Source: Ignavibacteriales bacterium
GTDB taxonomy: Bacteria > Bacteroidota > Ignavibacteria > UBA10030 > UBA6906
Direction of reading: 5' to 3'
Length of the DNA stretch: 64,000 nt
Assembly (NCBI GenBank): GCA_037441705.1
Contig: JBBIRR010000024.1
Location: 1-64,000, forward strand
This document shows, piece by piece, positions 7,812 to 16,955 of this stretch. The notes under the pieces were generated by a model. That model was not told the origin of the DNA, ran no database searches, and saw only the letters and a program-made list of their open reading frames with translations. The first letter of the stretch is position 1, and each line of letters starts with the position of its first letter. Made by a program: the position numbers and the translations under genes.

Positions 7812-8003
7812 ATGAAAACTCTGCTTCTTTCCGCGTTTGCAACTGCCTTGGTCATGGCACTCTATGGCTGCGGCGTCACGCAGATGGCCGGTGACCTCGC
7901 CCGTTCGGGTCAGAAAGATGTTGAAGTATCATGTTTCTTCGCGGACAATGGTTCACGTATTCCGGCAAGCGTCATTTGCTCGACAAATAGTGAAAGGATC
8001 TAA
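7812..8003 (+). CDS. Small lipoprotein, possibly truncated
   Basis: MKTLLLSAFATALVMALYGC lipobox, GGAG upstream. Confidence 0.45.
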   Translation: MKTLLLSAFATALVMALYGCGVTQMAGDLARSGQKDVEVSCFFADNGSRIPASVICSTNSERI

Positions 8004-8004
8004 C

Positions 8005-9258
8005 ATGCGAGGAATTATTGCGTTATTGGCTTTCGCGGTGCTTTCTCCGGCCAGATCTCAAACCGACATATGGCAAGATATGACGCCATCAGTTCCCGGT
8101 CACATCGCGGTTAACAAGAACACGGGACATGTTTTCGTTGGATACCAAGGACGTTACACGTTGTTCACCGAAAGTCCCGGGGCTGGAGTTTTCCGATCAA
8201 CCGACAACGGTGCGAATTGGCAAGTTGTGAATTCAGGTCTTACCAGTACGAACATTGTGGGACTGCATTGCACTTCAAATGGAATTCTGATCGCCGGTAC
8301 TCATCTGGACCGAGTCTTTCGTTCAAGCGACAACGGCTCGACTTGGACGCAGGTCCCGGTGACTGCTCGACTCAGTTGGTTCGCCAGCAAAGGGGACACA
8401 ATATTCGGATCGGATGGTTATTGGTGCCGTGGGGTTTTCCGTTCGACGAATGGCGGGGTGACATGGATGCAAGTGAATTCTGGGCTCGATCCATGTGTGA
8501 ATGGACTGACGATAAGTGCTGCAGGAAATGTCTTTGCCGCAACAGGGACAAGCGGTGTCTATCGCTCGACGAATTGGGGAGCCAATTGGATTCCGACAAA
8601 TTCGGGGATTACCAGTTCAAATTGCAGCCCCATCACTGCAACAGCGAGTGGTCACGTTCTCGTGGGTACAGTCACTGATGGAGTTTTCCATTCTAGCAAT
8701 GAAGGAAATTCATGGACGGCTGTGAACTCCGGCCTGCCAAGCCTCAATGCCATTCGCTTGGCTGCCAACTCGGCTGGCCATATCTTTGCAGGGATCCATC
8801 CCGCCGGGCTTTTCCGATCGACAAACAATGGGTCGTCGTGGTCTGCCTTTAATCTGGGCATTATCGACTCAGTCCGCGACGTGGGAAGCATCGAGTTCGC
8901 TCCCGCTGGTTACGCATGGATCCAAACGACGGGTAGGATTTATCGAAGCATCGACCCTATACTCTCTGTTAGACTACAGTCTCCTGAACCACCAACTTCC
9001 TTCTGGTTAGGACAAAACTATCCGAACCCGTTCAATCCGAACACAACCGTAGAGTTTGGGTTGCCGTCAGAATCAGCTGTCTCAATCAAGGTTTTCAATG
9101 TCCTTGGGCAGGAAGTGGCAACAATCTTAGAGGACCATCTTCCCGCAGGTACCTACAAGGTAGCGTGGAATGCACAGCCTTTCGCAAGCGGTACGTATTT
9201 CTATCGGTTGGTGGCCGGCTCGCATTCGGAAGTGAAAAAACTGATGCTGCAGAAGTGA
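8005..9258 (+). CDS. BNR-repeat protein with T9SS type A C-terminal domain
   Basis: Signal peptide, repeated RSTDNGANW-type boxes, QNYPNPFNP...KKLMLQK. Confidence 0.9.
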   Translation: MRGIIALLAFAVLSPARSQTDIWQDMTPSVPGHIAVNKNTGHVFVGYQGRYTLFTESPGAGVFRSTDNGANWQVVNSGLTSTNIVGLHCTSNGILIAGTHLDRVFRSSDNGSTWTQVPVTARLSWFASKGDTIFGSDGYWCRGVFRSTNGGVTWMQVNSGLDPCVNGLTISAAGNVFAATGTSGVYRSTNWGANWIPTNSGITSSNCSPITATASGHVLVGTVTDGVFHSSNEGNSWTAVNSGLPSLNAIRLAANSAGHIFAGIHPAGLFRSTNNGSSWSAFNLGIIDSVRDVGSIEFAPAGYAWIQTTGRIYRSIDPILSVRLQSPEPPTSFWLGQNYPNPFNPNTTVEFGLPSESAVSIKVFNVLGQEVATILEDHLPAGTYKVAWNAQPFASGTYFYRLVAGSHSEVKKLMLQK

Positions 9259-9266
9259 TTCAGGCG

Positions 9267-9494
9267 ATGGTATCCTCGACAGCAATTGAGTTTTCGCTAC
9301 CGAGATCTAGACGCGCAACACTCAAAGTGTTTGACCTGCTCGGCAGAGAAGTCACGACACTGGTGGATGAGCAATTGGCGGCCGGAAGCTACAAGCGCGC
9401 ATGGAACGCGGCAGGGTTTCCCAGCGGCGTGTATCTGTACCGCCTCCAAGCCGGCGAGTTCGTTGCCACCAAAAAACTTCTTCTGTTACGCTGA
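9267..9494 (+). pseudogene. Orphan T9SS C-terminal domain fragment
   Basis: STAIEFSLP...KVFDLLGREV...SGVYLYRL...KKLLLLR, with no YPNPFN start, passenger or signal peptide. Confidence 0.7.
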
Positions 9495-9531
9495 GGCATT
9501 CTACGCCACACATCATCAGAAGGTGACCCCC

Positions 9532-10740
9532 ATGCTCAAATCCCTCATCAACAAAATCGAAGAGCTGTACGTCTTCAACATCTCGCAGTTTTTCTGGCAC
9601 ATTTTTGTTGCGCTGGCGGCGATGGGTATCGTCGGCGGAGTGCTTCTGCTTTTGTGGGGAATCATCCCCGCATTCAAATCTTCAGTTACAAAGGAGGAGT
9701 ATCCTCCGATGGTGACTGTTACCGCTGATGAGCTGAAGGCGGCACTTGCTCCGGCAAAGCGAACGGAACGCGAAGCACAATGGCAAGCACCACCGCAACA
9801 AGCCGTCGCACCGCCGGTCTCTGCTGAGGCATCACCGGAGGAAATCGCCTATCGTGCCTCGCTCGACGAAATGCAGCGCCTCATACCACCCGCAAAATAC
9901 AGTTGGGGGGCTGAAGGATACTATGAGTACCCATACGGATACCAGTATCCGCAGTATGCGCGGTGGATACGACGCTCCCCCGCCGTTCTGGATAGACTGG
10001 AGTCAGCCTTCTCGCAGGCAGGAATCACGACGTTCAGTGAGAAGAAGCAATTGCTGGACACACACATTGTTGTCGTCCGGCAGTTCAAAGAGGAGGCGCG
10101 CCTGCCAGTATGGAAGGCACTCATGACCTGGAACGGACGCAGTCTTTCACAGGCAATTTCCAACGCAAAGCTGTTAGGCACATTTGTGCCCAAGTTCTCT
10201 GCCGATCGCAGCGAATATGTCACGAAACTGGCAACATTCGGCGACAAGAATCCCAATGACGGCTACGCGTTGGTGGAATACATCGGGAAAGTGATCGAGA
10301 AGTTCCCCCAGGAGAAGCGCAATGATGCCCTCGCCGCGCTCATCAACGCGTACAATCGCTATTTCAATAATCGTGTCCGCGAGCAGATCGAGATAACGGA
10401 TAGCTTCTTCCCCATGTTGACGAGCTTCTCTAACGATCAAGCCGTGAAAGCGCTTGAGACATACTATCAACTCGCCGCGGAAAAGAACTACGAACGCAGC
10501 CAGACGATTGCGGCCATCGAAGCGAGGTATCGCGCCGAATTGATGAGGGCAGAGGCAGAGTACGAGGCTGCAAGAGCAAAGAAGGCTTCGTGGAGGCTCA
10601 ACGGACTGTATGGGATTGTAGGCGGGATTGTTGTCGTTGCGACCATTGCGCTCGTTCTGGTGCTTCTCTCGATTCAACGATATGTGCGACAGATTAACGA
10701 GCGGCTGAACACGACTGCCACGGCAACCGTCAAGCAGTGA
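9532..10740 (+). CDS. Hypothetical two-TM membrane protein with a large helical loop
   Basis: N- and C-terminal hydrophobic segments; AAGGTG RBS. Confidence 0.75.
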   Translation: MLKSLINKIEELYVFNISQFFWHIFVALAAMGIVGGVLLLLWGIIPAFKSSVTKEEYPPMVTVTADELKAALAPAKRTEREAQWQAPPQQAVAPPVSAEASPEEIAYRASLDEMQRLIPPAKYSWGAEGYYEYPYGYQYPQYARWIRRSPAVLDRLESAFSQAGITTFSEKKQLLDTHIVVVRQFKEEARLPVWKALMTWNGRSLSQAISNAKLLGTFVPKFSADRSEYVTKLATFGDKNPNDGYALVEYIGKVIEKFPQEKRNDALAALINAYNRYFNNRVREQIEITDSFFPMLTSFSNDQAVKALETYYQLAAEKNYERSQTIAAIEARYRAELMRAEAEYEAARAKKASWRLNGLYGIVGGIVVVATIALVLVLLSIQRYVRQINERLNTTATATVKQ

Positions 10741-10816
10741 CAACGTGCGCGGTGAAAAGGAGATTTGTTGATGAAACCGTCGTAACGCTCAGCAACCGCC
10801 GCCTTTGCTCGCAGCA

Positions 10817-10855
10817 CAAAAACAAATCGGTCCCGCTGCGCGTGCAACGGGACCG
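10817..10855 (-). terminator. Rho-independent terminator
   Basis: CGGTCCCGTTGC-ACGC-GCAGCGGGACCG followed by ATTTGTTTTT; the G.U pair forms only on the minus strand. Confidence 0.85.
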
Positions 10856-10886
10856 TCTACAGAACTGAAGCCTTGCAAAGCTCTCG

Positions 10887-10925
10887 CTAGCAAGCTTTGC
10901 GCGAGGCTCCTATGTTAATCTTCAA
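10887..10925 (-). CDS. 12-aa micropeptide MKINIGASRKAC (TTG start)
   Basis: GAGGTG Shine-Dalgarno 8 nt upstream of TTG; TAG stop; lies between a promoter and a terminator. Confidence 0.55.
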   Translation of the reverse strand: MKINIGASRKAC

Positions 10926-11012
10926 GTGAGAACCACCTCGCTTTCCCAGGGTCACCACATCGTACCGAATATCCCCCTGAAGAATACCCGGTACAGCGTG
11001 AACTCCGTTTAC

Positions 11013-11041
11013 AATGTACTTTGCCCATCACACAAAGTCAA
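11013..11041 (-). promoter_or_regulatory. Sigma70-type promoter for the small transcript
   Basis: TTGACT-17 nt-TACATT. Confidence 0.6.
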
Positions 11042-11071
11042 GTCTTGATCGTGCATGCCATCACAGGCGCT

Positions 11072-11620
11072 TCAGCGTGCAGCTTCGATCGTTGGCGTGT
11101 AACTCCCCACGTACACACGATCGCTCGGCGTGCGGCAATCGCGAAAGTAGTTTTCGAGCGAGAATCGTACCGAGCTGAAGGCGATCTCGTTCCACCGCAC
11201 GTCGGACTCACGAAACAGTTGTGTACGTTCCGTCTCCGCCCCCGGGAAGAAATCACGATTCTTCAGGCGCGCGAGAAAGAAGAGATACACCTGCCCGATA
11301 CTGGGGATGCTGTACACCGAAAAGAGCCGAACGATATCCACTTCAGCGTGTGCTTCTTCGAGCGTCTCGCGCACGGCACCCTCTTCGACGGTTTCGCCTG
11401 TTTCGAGAAACCCTGCCGGCAGTGTCCAATAGCCGCTGCGGGGTTCGTTTGCGCGTTTGCAGAGAAGCACCTGTTCTTCCCATACCGGTAAACATCCGAC
11501 AATGAGCCGTGGGTTTTCGTAGTGAACCGTGTTGCACGCGTCGCACACGAAGCGCGGACGATGATCGCCGGGTGGTACGCGCCGCTGCACGGGCTTGCCG
11601 CATTCGCTGCAGTAGTTCAT
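11072..11620 (-). CDS. Nudix hydrolase with N-terminal zinc ribbon
   Basis: MNYCSECG...CDAC; [21 protein letters not shown] Nudix box. Confidence 0.9.
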
Positions 11621-12027
11621 GCCTCCTCGACCATCGGGCGCGCAGTCGTTGCCAGAAAGAAGCGTCCGATCATGACATCGAACGTTTCGCCGTCTTCCCG
11701 CTGCATTCGGAACGATCCTTCCATCGTTCCCCATTCCGTATCCAGCGGACAGAAACTCGTGTACTCGAAGTGTTCACCTGGTCCCAGGCTGGGAAACTTT
11801 CCGACGACGCCCGGACCCTGGACATCCTCCCGGTCGCCGCTGCCGTTGATGATGACCCAATGGCGCGAGAGCAATCGAACCCGCTGCGTTCCTTCGTTGG
11901 TGATGCCGATGCGATACGCAAACACGTATTTCCGTGCAGCAGGCTGCGATTGATCCGGCATGTACAAAGCCGCTGCACGCACGCGAACGCCTTCGGTAAC
12001 CGTCTCCGATGAGAGTTTGGTGGGCAT
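11617..12027 (-). CDS. apaG: ApaG protein
   Basis: YVFAYRIGI...LLSRHWVII...GPGVVG...YTSFCPL...GTMEGSF. Confidence 0.92.
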
Positions 12028-12047
12028 GCTTCCCTCAGAATGATGCA

Positions 12048-13424
12048 TTACTCAATGTAATCGAGATGTTTGCTGATCAAGATGTCAGCCCGATGGAGGT
12101 CGAGGTCCTCGGGCCGCGTAATTGTTTCCGATAATTGATCTAAGATCTGTTCCTGAATCGCACCGCGCGCCTGGGCGACGGAGTAAGGAATCCGCCGGAA
12201 CGTCACCATCGTGTACTTCGGAATGAACAGGCCCGGATAATGCCGTGCGAGAATGCGCTCGATCTGCTTCTTGAGCTGAAACTTCGCTCGCGCTACATGG
12301 TCGCGCATTTCCACAAAGTTTTCAACTGCGAGATCGGCAATGGCGTCGGTATCCTTCTTCCTCATCTTTTCGAATTCGGTGTAGAGTTGGTCCCATCTCA
12401 CTTTCTCCGGCGAGCGACCGATCGACATCTGCCGCTCGAGCAGGAGATTCAGGTACGTGCAATCTTCGAACGCACAGTTCATCCCCTGTCCAAAGAAGGG
12501 AACGATGGCATGCGCCGCATCGCCGAGCAACAGCACTTTGCCATCCACATGCCACGGCAGTCCTTTGACCGTGACCATCGATCCGGTGGGATGCTCGAAA
12601 AATTCCTGAACGAAGTCGGGCATCAAGGGCACCACGTCGGGGAATTGCTCTTTGAAGAATGCGAGCACTCGTTCTTCCGTGTTGAGAGTCTCAAAGCTGA
12701 TCTCCCCCTTGTGGGGAAAGAAGAACGTGCAGGTAAAGCTGCCGTCAAGGTTCGGCAGCGCGATCAGCATGTACGTTGTGCGGGGCCAGATGTGCAGCGC
12801 ATTTTTTTCGATGATGTGCTTGCCGTTGGGTCCCGACGGAATCGTCAGCTCCTTGTAGCCGTAGTCCAAATACTCGAGGGTGAACGTGCTGATGCCCTTC
12901 TCCACCATCGCCGTGCGGATGGCAGAGGCCGAGCCGTCGGCACCGATGACCGTCTTCGGAAGAACGGTAAACTCCTCTCCCGTCTGTTCATGGACGATCT
13001 GCACTTCGCCTGTCTCGAGATTCATGCCCGTGCAGCGCGCGTTGAAGTTGATGTGCAGGTTCTTGTGTTTCTCGGCGGCGTTCATCAAGAACTTGTTCAG
13101 TTCCGCTCGCGACACGGCGTAGATCACCTCCTGCTCGTCGAGGCCGTACCGTTGAAGGAACACCTCACCGCTCACAGGATGCACCATGCGTCCGCGCATC
13201 GGGATAGCGATGCGCAACACTTTCTCGGCGAGCCCCACTTCCCGCAAGGCGTGAATGCCGCGCACGGAGAGCGCAAGGTTGATCGAGCGGCCGCCGCCGA
13301 CGTCGGTTGTACGCATATCGCCGCGGCGCTCGTACAACTGCACGTGAAAATTTCTGCGTGCGAGGTAGATGCCCAGAAGCGAACCGGCAAGGCCCGCCCC
13401 GATGATGACGACGCTGTTTTTCAT
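12048..13424 (-). CDS. kmo: Kynurenine 3-monooxygenase
   Basis: GAGLAG, GRSINLALSVRG, ALHIWPR, GDAAHAIVPFFGQGMN. Confidence 0.93.
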   Translation of the reverse strand: MKNSVVIIGAGLAGSLLGIYLARRNFHVQLYERRGDMRTTDVGGGRSINLALSVRGIHALREVGLAEKVLRIAIPMRGRMVHPVSGEVFLQRYGLDEQEVIYAVSRAELNKFLMNAAEKHKNLHINFNARCTGMNLETGEVQIVHEQTGEEFTVLPKTVIGADGSASAIRTAMVEKGISTFTLEYLDYGYKELTIPSGPNGKHIIEKNALHIWPRTTYMLIALPNLDGSFTCTFFFPHKGEISFETLNTEERVLAFFKEQFPDVVPLMPDFVQEFFEHPTGSMVTVKGLPWHVDGKVLLLGDAAHAIVPFFGQGMNCAFEDCTYLNLLLERQMSIGRSPEKVRWDQLYTEFEKMRKKDTDAIADLAVENFVEMRDHVARAKFQLKKQIERILARHYPGLFIPKYTMVTFRRIPYSVAQARGAIQEQILDQLSETITRPEDLDLHRADILISKHLDYIE

Positions 13425-13443
13425 TGTGCGCTTCCCTCTGCAG

Positions 13444-14730
13444 TCACGTCCATGAAAACTGTCCAAGGATGTCGGCAAATCTCCACACATCCGCAAACGA
13501 ATTGTACAGCGGCACGGGCGCGAGACGGATGACGTTCGGCTCGCGCCAGTCGCACACAACGCCGTGATGTGTCAAGTGCTCGAAGAGTGCTTTCCCGCCC
13601 TTGCTTACCAGAAGAGACAACTGACAGCCGCGTTGCTGAGGATCGCCGGGTGTGATGATTCTGAAACGCCCTTCGCCATGGCGGCGAAGCAAGAACTCTG
13701 TGTAGCTCGTCAAGCGTATGCTCTTTTCGCGCAGCGCCTCCATGCCGACCTCTTCGAAGATCGCCATCGACGCGCGAAGAGACGCAAGCGGGAGAATCGG
13801 TGGATTGCTCACCTGCCAACCCTCGGCACCGGGAATCGGATCGAACGTCGGACCCATAGAAAAACGGATGTGTTTGTTCTGTCCCCACCATCCGGCAAAG
13901 CGCGGCAGGTCGGGACGGTGTGCGTAGCGCTCGTGCACGAAACACCCTGCGATGCTTCCGGGTCCCGCATTGAGATATTTGTACGAACACCAGACGGCGA
14001 AATCTACATTCCACTCATGAAGCTTCAACGGAAGATTGCCTGCGGCATGGGCGAGATCAAACCCGACGAGACAGCCCTGCGCCTGAGCGGCGCGCGTGAT
14101 GCGCTCCATGTCGAACGCCTGACCCGTGTAGTAGTTCACGCCGCCCAGGAGCACAAGCGCGATTTCCTCGCCGTCTGCTTCAAGCACATCTTCGATGTCT
14201 TCTGTGCGCAGCGTGGCTTCGCCGAACCGCGGCTGAAGTTCGATGAGCGATCGTTTGGGATCGAAGCCGTGAAATCGGATTTGCGATTCGACAGCGTAGC
14301 GATCCGACGGGAAGGCATGTGCCTCGATGACGATCTTGTGCCGGCGCGTCGTCGGGCGGTAGAACGAGACGAGCATGAGATGCAAGTTCACCGTCAGCGT
14401 ATTCATCACCACCACCTCGATGGGTTTGGCGCCGACCAGCCGCGCTGTTTGCTCCGTCAGCAATTCGTGGTACGGCATCCACGGATTGCGCGCGTGGAAA
14501 TGCCCCTCGACTCCCCATCGTGCCCAGTCCTCTAACTCCTGCTCGACGTATGTCCGAACGGTTGTCGGCTGCAACCCGAGCGAGTTGCCGCACAGATAAA
14601 TCACCTCGTTGCCGTCCCGACCTTTGGGAATCAAGAAGCGGTCGCGATAGTGCCTCAGCGGATCGTCGGCATCAAGCTGCTCGGCAAAACGCCTGTCATC
14701 GGAGAATGTCATGTGGTGGTTCTTACTCAT
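13444..14730 (-). CDS. kynU: Kynureninase
   Basis: YLCGNSLGLQP, DLAHAAGN, WCSYKYLNAGPG, AGWWG. Confidence 0.95.
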   Translation of the reverse strand: MSKNHHMTFSDDRRFAEQLDADDPLRHYRDRFLIPKGRDGNEVIYLCGNSLGLQPTTVRTYVEQELEDWARWGVEGHFHARNPWMPYHELLTEQTARLVGAKPIEVVVMNTLTVNLHLMLVSFYRPTTRRHKIVIEAHAFPSDRYAVESQIRFHGFDPKRSLIELQPRFGEATLRTEDIEDVLEADGEEIALVLLGGVNYYTGQAFDMERITRAAQAQGCLVGFDLAHAAGNLPLKLHEWNVDFAVWCSYKYLNAGPGSIAGCFVHERYAHRPDLPRFAGWWGQNKHIRFSMGPTFDPIPGAEGWQVSNPPILPLASLRASMAIFEEVGMEALREKSIRLTSYTEFLLRRHGEGRFRIITPGDPQQRGCQLSLLVSKGGKALFEHLTHHGVVCDWREPNVIRLAPVPLYNSFADVWRFADILGQFSWT

Positions 14731-15934
14731 CAAACTCAAAATCTTCCAGCTCGGGGATATTGGTAAATGCAATCCGCGTGGGGGCCGCGTGCCCGCTCAC
14801 ACCGCCGAAATGCACCGCCATCTTTCCGTACTTCGCATTCAGTTTGTCCATAGCGAGCGCCAGACCCGTTCGCTTCTCTTCATCAAACATTCCAAAGTTG
14901 TGGAGATGATCGGGGACGAGGTTGTACAGCGTGACGCCGACCGCCAACGGCTTTGCTCCTTTCGGAAATCCATTCCACAGCTTCTGAAGCGCTTCGAGCA
15001 ACGTCAACGTGTCGTTGCACTCCACAAAGTTGACGTGTGTTTCCCATTTCGGCCGATTGAGGAATTTGACGAACAGGGCGAGACTCGAGCACCAGTAGTT
15101 CAGGCGCCGGAGACGCGCTGCCGCTTTATGCACGAGTTTCTGTGCAACGGCGTATGCACCCTCCGGAGTTCGTTCCTTCGGCGGCAGAACGTGTGAATGC
15201 CCTACCGTTCGCCGCTGCGTTTCAAAACCTTCGACATCCTCGCCGCGCAGCAGATGGTAGAATCGCGCGCCGACCACCCCGCCCCAGATTTTTCGCATCG
15301 TTTGTTCCGAACATTCTAACAGTTGCTTTGCGGTGTAAATCTCGTACGCCTGCAAGCGTTTCTCCATCCTCGGCCCGATGCCGGGAAAATCTCGCGTCTG
15401 CAATGGGTAGAGAATGTCGGGCAAATCCTTTTGCTCGATTACGACAAGCCCGTCCGGCTTCTGCATGTCGCTGGCAACTTTTGCCAGAAAGCGGTTCGGC
15501 GCCAGACCAATGGAGCAGCGAAGCGTCGAGCCCACTTTTTCTCTGATAGTTTGTTTGATGAGCAGAGCAAGTTTCGTTGCCTTCTCAACATCCTGCTGAC
15601 TTCCAGTGAGTTTGCACGCCATCTCATCAATGGAAACCACAGCGTGAATAGGAATGCAGGCCTCCACCGCTTCGACAATCCGATGATGATACCGGACGTA
15701 TTCCTCATGCCGCGCCTGCACCAGGATCAAACCCGGACACATCCTCTTGGCCTCATCCACCCGCGTTCCCGTCTTGACACCGAACGCCTTCGCTTCGTAA
15801 CTCGCAGCGATGCAGAACGTCGTATCGGCCATCAGCGGAACCACGGCAACAGGTTTGCAGCGCAGTTCCGGTCGAAGTTCCTGCTCGACAGAGGCGAAGT
15901 AGGAGTTCAAATCCAGAAACAACCAGCTCACCAT
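14723..15934 (-). CDS. dinB: Y-family DNA polymerase (Pol IV/DinB)
   Basis: LDLNSYFASVEQ, AASYEAKAFGV, SIDE, LAKVASDMQKPDGL. Confidence 0.9.
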   Translation of the reverse strand: MVSWLFLDLNSYFASVEQELRPELRCKPVAVVPLMADTTFCIAASYEAKAFGVKTGTRVDEAKRMCPGLILVQARHEEYVRYHHRIVEAVEACIPIHAVVSIDEMACKLTGSQQDVEKATKLALLIKQTIREKVGSTLRCSIGLAPNRFLAKVASDMQKPDGLVVIEQKDLPDILYPLQTRDFPGIGPRMEKRLQAYEIYTAKQLLECSEQTMRKIWGGVVGARFYHLLRGEDVEGFETQRRTVGHSHVLPPKERTPEGAYAVAQKLVHKAAARLRRLNYWCSSLALFVKFLNRPKWETHVNFVECNDTLTLLEALQKLWNGFPKGAKPLAVGVTLYNLVPDHLHNFGMFDEEKRTGLALAMDKLNAKYGKMAVHFGGVSGHAAPTRIAFTNIPELEDFEFDE

Positions 15935-15941
15935 GGAGTCA

Positions 15942-16955
15942 TCAATCCATCCTTCCTCCATTTCTTCCCAACCAGCGCAGCGCATTCAGCGAGTAGAGCT
16001 TCTCTTTCGTTTGATGATCGAGATCGGTCATCTGCTCGATGAGGCTGCCGGGTCGCTGCTCGCCGAGCGGGAACGGATAATCGGAACCGAGAACAACATG
16101 GTCGTCGCCCACCAGCTCGAGGATGTACTTCAGCATCCTTCGATCGTGGACGAGCGAGTCGAGATAAAACCTGCCGAGATAGCGTCGGGGATTGTGCGGA
16201 TTGTCCACGCCACACAGGTCGGGGCGAACGTTGAAGCCGTGTTCGATGCGGCCGAGCGTGCCGGGGAACGCGCCGCCGCCGTGTGCGAATGCCACGCGCA
16301 GATTCGGCAGGCGTTCGAAGACACCGCCGAAGATCATCGTGCAGATGGCAAGCGAGACTTCCGCCGGCATGCCGACGAGCCACGGCAGCCAGTACTTCGG
16401 CATGCGGTCCTTCCCCATCATATCCCAGGGATGGACGAAAACGGCGGCGCCGAGTTCCGCCGCGGCTTGAAAGATGGGAAAGAGATGTTTGTCGTCCAGG
16501 TTCCAATCGTTGACGTGCGTGCCGATTTCGACGCCGGCAAGATGAAGCTCCTTGACGCATCGTTCGAGTTCCTTCACGGCAAGCTCGGGCGCCTGCATCG
16601 GGATCGTTCCCAACCCGATGAAACGATCCGGCGCGGACGCAACAACGCTTGCAATGTGGTCGTTGAGAAATCGCGAAAGGTCCAGTGCATCCTGTCCTTT
16701 CGCCCAGTAACTGAACATCACCGGCACGGTGGAAAGAACCTGAACGCTCACCCCCTGCTTATCGCAGTCGTGCAAGCGAACGTGTGCATCCCAGAGATTC
16801 TCCTCCACGTCGCGGAAATGTTTGTCGTCAATCATCATTCTCGCACAGCCCGGGGCGTAATGCTCCATGCGCACCCAGCCGCCGTAGCCGTACTTCTCCT
16901 TCAAGTCAGGCCAGTTCTTCGGAAGAATATGCGTGTGAATGTCTATCTTCATCAT
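15942..16955 (-). CDS. nbaD: 2-amino-3-carboxymuconate-6-semialdehyde decarboxylase (ACMSD)
   Basis: IDIHTH, FVHPWDM, PWLVGMPAE, AHGGGAF, GSDYPFPLGE. Confidence 0.92.
   Translation of the reverse strand: MMKIDIHTHILPKNWPDLKEKYGYGGWVRMEHYAPGCARMMIDDKHFRDVEENLWDAHVRLHDCDKQGVSVQVLSTVPVMFSYWAKGQDALDLSRFLNDHIASVVASAPDRFIGLGTIPMQAPELAVKELERCVKELHLAGVEIGTHVNDWNLDDKHLFPIFQAAAELGAAVFVHPWDMMGKDRMPKYWLPWLVGMPAEVSLAICTMIFGGVFERLPNLRVAFAHGGGAFPGTLGRIEHGFNVRPDLCGVDNPHNPRRYLGRFYLDSLVHDRRMLKYILELVGDDHVVLGSDYPFPLGEQRPGSLIEQMTDLDHQTKEKLYSLNALRWLGRNGGRMD

Follow-up and report, generated by a model that had tools for sequence, protein, structure and literature searches.

Between a Nudix gene and a convergent open reading frame (ORF) of 484 residues, on the minus strand of a 64,000-nucleotide (nt) stretch of Ignavibacteriales DNA (positions 1 to 64,000 of contig JBBIRR010000024.1, hereafter the window), there is a stand-alone structured RNA gene of about 190 nt that encloses a frame of only 12 sense codons. 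The question raised by this locus is what is being conserved in it: the RNA, the peptide, or the act of translating the one to make the other. Judged by sequence comparison, the element belongs to a real RNA family, found in several Bacteroidota-related lineages of the Fibrobacteres-Chlorobi-Bacteroidetes (FCB) group and undescribed as far as our searches show. We lean, though without great assurance, toward reading it as a translated, self-masked mini-ORF RNA that acts as a translation-dependent switch. Below, G000 is the genome of the window, other G and L labels are the genomes and loci of its relatives, and g labels are genera.

An RNA gene with a short reading frame

An earlier note on this DNA had described a promoter, a 5' hairpin, a Shine-Dalgarno (SD) sequence, a 12-codon ORF and a terminator on the minus strand here, and all five are found where it placed them. 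The promoter is of the sigma-70 type (11013 to 11041, with TTGACT at 11041-11036, a 17-nt spacer and TACATT at 11018-11013), and its position predicts a transcript start near 11006. It is the single sigma-70-like site on either strand of the interval 10000-12000, where 0.7 would be expected. The 5' hairpin, P1 (10961 to 10995), has 14 pairs, supported by both folding and covariation, and displays CAGGG in its apical loop. This loop strand (10979-10975) forms a pseudoknot (10947 to 10979) with CCCUG at 10951-10947, which lies 7 nt 5' of the SD region. The SD region itself (10930 to 10939) reads GAGGUGGUUC, the relatives having mostly (A)AGGAGGUGAUCC, and its GAGGTG core at 10939-10934 is separated by 8 nt from the start codon. 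The mini-ORF (10887 to 10925) starts with TTG at 10925, continues for 12 sense codons (MKINIGASRKAC) and stops with TAG at 10889-10887.

Two further elements overlap the frame. Codons 5-8 form an anti-SD strand, AUAGGAGCCUC (10903 to 10913), that pairs with the SD and start region in what we call the masked state. The same codons also contribute to an alternative hairpin, P3 (10867 to 10910), in which GGAGCCU pairs with AGGCUUC around an inner helix of GCAAAGCUU and GAGCUUUGC, with the stop codon in the apical part. An intrinsic terminator follows (10818 to 10855), consisting of a 12-pair stem at 10855-10828, nine of whose pairs are G-C, and a T tract. The 196-nt transcript folds at -82.1 kcal/mol, compared with -61.8 +/- 4.0 for shuffled sequences (z = -5.1), and none of 200 shuffles was as stable. 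The description of the locus as a self-contained, unannotated structured small RNA is borne out by its own promoter and terminator, by this folding energy and by homologues with differing flanks.

The stem that had been drawn through the end of the ORF (CUCGC/GCGAG plus GCAA/UUGC) did not survive comparison with relatives. It is complete in G000 only, keeps eight of nine pairs in the nearest relative, G003, and is broken at four to six of the nine pairs in the other eight of ten same-genus copies. The conserved hairpin is GGAGCCU/AGGCUUC with its inner helix.

Distribution of the family

By BLAST the element is present in 9 of the 11 other genomes of the same genus. A covariance model, R1, built on an alignment (A1) of ten same-genus copies, found full-length copies scoring 89-208 bits in 17 of the 68 genomes of the GTDB family, spread over four genera (g1, 10 of 12 with G000 included; g34, 4 of 5; g10, 2 of 2; g42, 1 of 1). 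For a wider search we used a pattern made of the pseudoknot strand (CCCYG), the SD (GAGGUG) and GGAGCCUC, with start, stop and frame left out. This gave 34 loci in species-representative genomes and 28 in metagenomes, and R1 confirmed all 34 of the genome loci, 33 at full length and one cut by a contig end. The record titles of the pattern loci name Rhodothermales or Rhodothermia, Ignavibacteriae, Chlorobi, Calditrichota or Calditrichia, KSB1, and metagenome-assembled genomes that are unclassified or labelled simply "Bacteroidota". These labels are the submitters' own and are partly inconsistent, a single GTDB genus bearing Chlorobi, Ignavibacteriae and Chitinophagales labels.

In total, 79 loci carry the element (17 + 34 + 28). 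Of these, 48 are represented in our alignments A3 and A4, the others being duplicates or near-duplicates except for L045, which is cut by a contig end, and L047, which has a large insertion. Sixty-two of the 79 loci are derived from the pattern, so that GAGGUG and GGAGCCUC are fixed in them by construction, and 31 of the 48 aligned sequences were retrieved by a pattern that included CCCYG.

A broader model, R2, built on a trimmed 134-column alignment, matched 7 of 151 genomes sampled across the phylum: four from the element's own family, one strong copy of the Rhodothermales type and two weak matches. We rejected the two weak ones, L101 and L102 (26-29 bits), as the sequence looks coding and the SD/ORF module is missing. 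In the large families of this sample the model matched 0 of 31 and 0 of 22 genomes. Three loci with terminator-like parts alone (L011, L031 and L032; 23-41 bits) and one weak match in G067 (L030; 27 bits) were also set aside. Plasmids and phages gave no match to the element (blastn, E<=1e-3) and viral contigs gave none to the pattern, and on these grounds we rejected a mobile-element reading.

An Rfam scan had been suggested for this locus, with 6S RNA named as a family that it might match, and no family, 6S included, was found. The 64-kb window has no match to Rfam 15 at the gathering score, and at E<=10 the region 10650-11200 matches nothing but two snoRNA models at 14-16 bits. Across 18 diverse homologous loci, searched at E<=0.1, we obtained noise alone, with no 6S and no riboswitch model. 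The sole Rfam match overlapping the element in these loci, to CC2171 in L035, scores 28.9 bits where the cut-off is 75. A full-text literature search, whose reach did not extend to subscription-only papers, returned no description of this RNA, and we know of no described family to which it belongs.

Conservation of the structure

The covariation check that the earlier note had called for favors the structure. Across the 48 aligned sequences, 13 of the 14 pairs of P1 show changes on both sides, with 91.6% of cells paired, and all 10 stem pairs scored in the terminator covary. The structure as a whole has 95.7% of cells paired, vs 39-53% when the partners are slid by 1-3 columns, and the covariation observed in alignment A3 was reached by none of 500 shuffles. 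Four of the five pseudoknot pairs are invariant. The fifth is A-U in 43 sequences, G-C in one, G-U in one and unpaired in three, and G076 shows a double change, CGGGG with CCCCG; covariation at this one varying pair supports the loop-to-linker pseudoknot. P1 itself is a plain covarying helix without conserved internal loops or bulges, and the conserved bases of the 5' domain are those of the loop and pseudoknot together with a 5' UUCACGC motif. A pairing of UUCACGC with the SD was considered and dropped, its covariation being inconsistent.

Copies of the KSB1/Calditrichota type (L037, L049, L051, L052, L058, L071 and L082) have an extra hairpin of about 15-60 nt right after the stop codon, within the P3 loop, and this insertion leaves the length of the ORF unchanged. 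A second ORF 3' of the SD-like strand of P3 was also considered; it was dropped because an AUG 11-12 nt downstream is present in some lineages only.

Is the mini-ORF translated?

Among the loci scanned there are 46 distinct 42-nt ORF windows. Over 13 codons these contain no in-frame stop triplet, vs 59 in the +1 frame and 52 in the +2 frame. For codons -5 to -2, which are variable and A/U-rich, the corresponding numbers are 0, 29 and 28; 2000 shuffling trials averaged 16.4 stops, the lowest value being 4. Seven codons after GGA there is a stop in all 46 windows (UAG in 36, UAA in nine, UGA in one), and all the loci read (39 of 39 and 28 of 28) have a stop at that codon. Alignment A4 has no gap column from the ORF start to 4 nt past the stop (columns 87-134), compared with 15 in columns 1-86, and large insertions occur 3' of the stop. 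Mean entropy over codons +2 to +6 is 0.74, 0.66 and 1.52 for the first, second and third codon positions. The earlier note's proposed test of ORF conservation and substitution pattern thus comes out in favor of coding, with a stop-free frame, a fixed stop and higher variability at third positions.

A start-type codon is found 5-8 nt from the SD. It varies with the frame kept, being UUG in 22 of the windows, GUG in two (for example, G076) and AUG in five (for example, Rhodothermales copies). None of start, stop or frame was in the search pattern. In our view the sequences make a strong case that the ORF carries real signatures of translation, and the ORF is probably translated.

The predicted peptide has 12-13 residues, is hydrophilic, and has the consensus x4-[IM]-G-A-S-G-[ED]-A-[CW]. 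Only G-A-S is invariant, and the codons for these residues are the anti-SD strand of the RNA. A terminal Cys had been proposed as the defining trait of the peptide, but this is lineage-specific: the last residue is Cys in the genus of the window, in "clade B" and in Rhodothermales copies; g34, g10 and g42 have Trp or Arg in its place, and the remaining copies end in Arg, Leu, Ser, Asn or Cys. Taken as a set, the last four residues run from GDAC, GEAW and GNQR to VKHR, VSKL, APIR, SEAN and EKLC.

All of these coding signatures (the stop-free frame, the fixed stop and the third-position variability) would apply equally if the element were simply a gene for a functional micropeptide of 12-13 residues, with the RNA structure merely tuning the amount of peptide made. 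The recurrence of G-[ED]-A-[CW] among copies of the Ignavibacteria type, of clade B and of the Rhodothermales, encoded by codons that differ synonymously (GGU/GGC/GGA, GAA/GAG/GAC/GAU, GCC/GCU and UGC/UGU), points the same way, as do some redox- or iron-related neighbors (ferritin at four loci, rhodanese at four, a bacilliredoxin-type PF06491 protein at two). We nevertheless find this explanation unlikely, although it is the alternative to which we give the most weight. The one invariant stretch of the peptide is encoded by the anti-SD strand, the last four residues differ widely, the four N-terminal residues show little periodicity (1.14, 1.36 and 1.52 at the three codon positions), and no partner gene is conserved. 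In addition, changes in codons +3 to +6 are mirrored in the non-coding 3' strand of P3, so RNA pairing explains part of the constraint on the frame. Since the variable C-terminal codons are matched in the P3 strand, we think that selection keeps the act of translating a fixed-length frame, together with the RNA switch, more than it keeps the peptide, most of whose sequence would be free to change.

Two kinds of peptide gene can be set aside altogether. A precursor of a ribosomally synthesized and post-translationally modified peptide (RiPP), which the earlier note had listed among its possibilities, is rejected given the variable C-terminal four residues and the lack of any neighbor gene or Pfam family shared by all lineages. 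A type I toxin mRNA, which the same note had discounted, we likewise reject: the peptide is short (12-13 residues) and hydrophilic, and no second promoter-like site is present on either strand in 10000-12000.

Two alternative partners for the anti-SD codons

The 3' end of the genome's own 16S ribosomal RNA reads ...GGAUCACCUCCUUUCU. Exact complementarity to this tail extends for at least 11 nt in 36 of the 48 copies; the window copy has 6 nt plus wobble pairs. On a side note, the 10-mer GGAGGTGATC has 31 copies in G000, counting both strands and including the 16S gene itself, and judging by this number G000 appears to use long SD sequences, in contrast to the Bacteroidia proper.

In the masked pairing, GGAGGU..UCCUAU (the SD and the first two bases of the AUN codon) is paired with AUAGGA.GCCUCC (ORF codons 5-8, AUAGGAGCCUCC). 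RNAalifold picks this helix on both a 10-sequence and a 37-sequence alignment. In the 48 sequences the SD hairpin is 96.9% paired, and 4 of its 12 pairs have changed on both sides, as in UCCUG/CAGGA in G008. A test free of the search pattern is afforded by the 17 model-derived copies only, in which GAGGUG is found in 17 of 17 and GGAGCCUC in 16 of 17.

The alternative partner of the anti-SD codons lies downstream and gives P3; its sequence is AGGCUUC in the window and CGGAGGCUCC in most phyla. When the 48 sequences were folded under constraint, the SD hairpin formed in 46, and in 34 all six anti-SD bases had their partners downstream of the stop. In 31 of those 34, the 3' strand of P3 starts 15-19 nt past the stop. 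The masked state was favored by a median of 5 kcal/mol, the difference between states ranging from -10.8 to +2.1; we would expect an SD/anti-SD duplex of such length to be well able to pay this margin. In unconstrained minimum free energy folds of 37 sequences, the anti-SD strand is in most cases paired, entirely or for the greater part, either upstream or downstream, in roughly equal numbers, with few split cases. P3 keeps at least 10 of its 13 pairs in all ten same-genus copies. All 10 representatives retain the terminator hairpin in the masked and the open modelled states alike, and 9 of them still do so when the ORF is forced single-stranded.

A proposed translation-dependent switch

The reading that we regard as somewhat probable is the following. 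A 5' domain, consisting of a long hairpin whose loop is pseudoknotted just 5' of the ribosome-binding site, would be joined to a translated ORF of 12-13 codons. In the masked fold, the very strong SD and the start codon would be paired with the ORF's own codons 5-8, which resemble an anti-SD. In the open fold, which would exclude the masked one, these codons would pair instead with the SD-like strand about 15-19 nt past the stop to give P3. A ribosome capturing the open fold would have to unzip P3 fully to reach the stop codon, and translation would therefore remodel the RNA. The share of the RNA that is translated should respond steeply to how many free 30S subunits are ready to initiate. The comparison establishes the gene with its conservation, P1, the terminator, the two competing pairings, and the kept frame and stop; from these we infer that ribosomes translate the ORF and that the two folds interconvert in vivo. 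As a guess, the switch may control the RNA's own activity or stability, making the RNA a regulator or a sensor of translation capacity.

Several points weigh against this reading or blunt the evidence for it. In 17 of the 46 ORF windows, AUU, AUA or AUC is the sole start candidate at the right distance from the SD, so that translation of those copies would need a near-cognate start; six of these 17 have, in addition, an AUG immediately 5' of GGA, at too great a distance from the SD. Alignment A3, having been fitted to R1, is biased toward the R1 structure, SD helix included. Six of the 12 SD-hairpin pairs are invariant, the SD and anti-SD hardly varying, and are thus uninformative either way, and the invariance of the SD and of GGAGCCUC likewise tells us nothing in the 62 pattern-derived loci. 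The outer helix of P3 is just 80.4% paired on A3, with 2 of 10 pairs changed on both sides, and support for P3 comes mainly from per-sequence folding. The sequences are related, so that our counts overstate their independence. Finally, the patchy distribution of the element argues against a housekeeping role.

A more specific proposal, which we hold to be doubtful, is that the RNA is a dedicated sensor of translation-initiation capacity, in which ribosome passages flip the folds and the strand so exposed acts in trans. Here an SD complementary to as many as 13-16 nt of the 16S tail would be locked by an ORF-internal mimic of that tail. AUU, AUA, AUC and UUG are the kind of start codon that initiation factor 3 (IF3) discriminates against, and with such a start, often near-cognate, the ORF would be translated only when free, permissive 30S subunits are abundant. 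The flip would expose an anti-SD (CCUCC) or an SD-like (GGAGG) strand, which could act on the ribosome-binding sites of other mRNAs or on ribosomes. If this were true, the sensor would be a translation-driven RNA switch without a described counterpart.

To our knowledge, hardly any regulatory RNA has been studied experimentally in Ignavibacteria-type bacteria, the Rhodothermales, Calditrichota or KSB1. The present family, compact at about 190 nt, easily recognised, common to these lineages and absent from Rfam 15, has an architecture that lends itself to experiment: a covarying hairpin with a pseudoknot, an unusually long SD, a self-masking ORF of fixed length, and a hairpin that the ribosome would unzip. 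If translation is confirmed, the ORF would be among the shortest conserved in bacteria, with the act of translation rather than the peptide under selection, and the RNA would offer a handle on how these phyla read out ribosome supply or initiation fidelity. Hybrids such as this one can escape surveys of "non-coding" RNAs and of small ORFs alike.

Could the RNA do its work without being translated at all? A decoy that mimics a start site, binding the 30S subunit through its long SD or else an RNA-binding protein, with the ORF incidental, would make sense of a complementarity to the 16S tail (at least 11 nt in three quarters of the aligned copies, 36 of 48) that is far above ordinary SD length. 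It would also accommodate the 17 of 46 copies without a canonical start at the right distance, and the presence in one RNA of an SD, a mimic of the anti-SD and another SD-like strand. A decoy could do without an open frame and a fixed stop, yet the frame lacks the stops that are so frequent in the other two (0 vs 59 and 52), the stop is kept in 46 of 46 windows with three different stop codons in use, and the ORF is free of indels. SDs of the GGAGGTGATC type are, as the 31 copies of this 10-mer on the two strands indicate, not rare in the genome. We consider the decoy quite improbable.

Neighboring genes and transcription signals

In the window, the RNA is preceded by a same-strand run of genes (11072-15985, minus strand) encoding a DinB/IMS polymerase, kynureninase, a KMO-like FAD monooxygenase, ApaG and a zinc-ribbon Nudix protein, and it is followed by no same-strand gene; the next gene (9286-10740, plus strand) is convergent and encodes 484 residues with no Pfam match. 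Placing the RNA at the end of a kynurenine operon, as had been proposed, is loosely right for this locus, with kynureninase, the KMO-like gene, ApaG and Nudix upstream, and does not extend further, as the synteny is confined to the genus. There the order is ApaG-Nudix-RNA-(rhodanese)-(unknown)-DUF1572. Of the 10 genus copies, 8 retain ApaG-Nudix-RNA, and G004 and G008 have different upstream genes. In G004 an IS1595-family transposase fragment (L019:1214-1837, minus strand) lies directly upstream of the RNA in place of the usual Nudix gene.

Elsewhere the neighbors change. The gene 3' of the RNA is a convergent amidohydrolase in g34 and a convergent prfC in g10 and g42, while other lineages have NHL-repeat proteins, a sulfatase, a peptidase M1, Lnt and others. 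In about half of the loci the downstream gene is convergent, and no Pfam family is common to the neighbors of all lineages. As the flanking genes differ between lineages and the RNA has its own promoter and terminator, we take it to be a stand-alone unit.

Four loci, of the KSB1 type or unclassified, have a ferritin gene directly 3' of the RNA and in the same orientation (L049:1577-2209:+, L052:1774-2283:+, L051:763-1350:- and L047:798-1307:-), and their other neighbors vary (hydantoinase, cytochrome b, metallo-beta-lactamase, DUF5131). A same-strand rhodanese gene follows the terminator in G001, G010, G004 and L035, and NHL-repeat genes do so in L043, L053 and L054. Genes for bacilliredoxin-type PF06491 proteins are among the neighbors in L062 and L065. 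The ferritin linkage, taken with the rhodanese and PF06491 genes, might hint at a connection to iron or redox.

These same-strand genes are what would recommend a cis-acting leader or attenuator, in which translation of the leader ORF sets terminator formation and the regulated gene is rhodanese in this genus or ferritin in the KSB1-type copies. We regard it as very unlikely. The convergent orientation of the next gene in the window, in g34, g10 and g42, and in many other loci largely refutes it, and in L049 and L047 ferritin has its own promoter, of the TTGACT-17-TATAAT type, between the RNA terminator and the gene (none was picked out in L051 or L052). The terminator also persists in the modelled folds, with no antiterminator apparent in energy-model folding. 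The judgment of the earlier note that this is not a simple attenuator is thus upheld by the convergent gene and the persistent terminator.

A promoter scoring at least 8 of 12 is found in 29 of the 48 aligned copies, and in 24 of them, as here, 3-6 nt separate the end of the -10 box from the first model position. Clade B and Rhodothermales copies have no sigma-70-like promoter at the usual position. In clade B (L043, L053, L054, L059, L064, L070 and L075), most copies have an upstream motif (TTATGGCCGTCGAT-like) followed by a small hairpin, about 45 nt 5' of the RNA. A sigma-54 promoter was considered for clade B and dropped because of a spacing misfit.

Comparison with known systems

That the RNA belongs to a known class of global regulator, as a divergent 6S RNA or a CsrA-titrating sponge, seems to us barely credible: no Rfam match was obtained at any threshold tried, the supported fold (a 5' hairpin, a pseudoknot, local hairpins and a terminator) has no end-to-end closing stem and no rod with a central bubble as in 6S, and the occurrence of CsrA, encoded in 34 of the 68 family genomes, does not track the RNA. 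A CsrA hit is lacking from genomes that have the RNA (0 of 2 in g10, 0 of 1 in g42, and G002 and G004), and CsrA is found without the RNA in g7 (4 of 4), g38 (6 of 6) and g30 (2 of 2), one weak 27-bit RNA match in g38 aside. What speaks for these classes is that the 6S slot looks empty, with no RF00013 match in G000, a genome scored 100% complete (a search with RF01685, 6S-Flavo, had no working control and is not counted), and that CsrA is encoded in the genome and the RNA has several GGA motifs; three or four of these motifs, however, pair with one another or form the pseudoknot rather than being displayed in loops. A known riboswitch class is rejected for want of any match to an Rfam aptamer model. 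In the modelled folds, the SD switch does resemble an expression platform.

We read the RNA best as a new variation on the theme of dual-function small RNA and leader peptide. Dual-function small RNAs include SgrS/SgrT, RNAIII/delta-haemolysin and SR1/SR1P. Like these, the present RNA is short, independent, structured, terminator-ended, and contains a small ORF, presumably translated. It differs from them in that its ORF has 12-13 codons with a poorly conserved peptide and that its most conserved parts are the ribosome-binding site, the ORF-internal anti-SD and the SD-like strand, so that what the RNA acts on appears to be its own translation. Beyond the 5' UUCACGC motif we see no obvious single-stranded seed that is conserved, and no search for targets was made.

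SD-sequestering switches include type I toxin mRNAs (hok, tisB and aapA1) and riboswitches with an SD-adjacent pseudoknot (preQ1-II and SAM-II). In these, as here, an intramolecular anti-SD masks the SD, an alternative fold frees it, and a pseudoknot may lie immediately 5' of the SD. Unlike the toxin mRNAs, the family reported here has a short, hydrophilic peptide and no antisense partner that we could see; unlike preQ1-II and SAM-II, its P1 lacks the conserved internal loops or bulges that would hint at a ligand pocket, and it matches no Rfam riboswitch. The sole "gene" under control is, moreover, a frame of 12-13 codons, which sets it apart from both groups.

Phage lambda bar minigenes and mccA, the 7-codon gene for the microcin C precursor, resemble our RNA in having a strong SD and a very short ORF that is followed at once by a hairpin or terminator. 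They belong to a phage or go with a neighboring biosynthetic operon, whereas here there is no phage, plasmid or viral-contig match and no conserved neighbor.

A trans-acting attenuator RNA, rnTrpL, with its peptide peTrpL, has been described in Sinorhizobium (PMC7968998). Like this RNA and the trpL-type attenuators (Rfam Bacteroid-trp), our family has a tiny ORF with an SD, alternative hairpins that involve the ORF and an intrinsic terminator about 35-50 nt past the stop, and appears to conserve translation rather than the peptide. In contrast to them, no conserved regulated gene lies downstream, no run of regulatory codons and no antiterminator was found, and the alternative pairing would control the ribosome-binding site, not the terminator.

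Other features of the window

The convergent 484-residue ORF (9286-10740, plus strand) has a hydrophobic stretch at its end. Its upstream neighbor on the same strand (7837-9258) encodes a Sortilin/BNR-like repeat and a C-terminal sorting domain of the type IX secretion system (T9SS; Por_Secre_tail).

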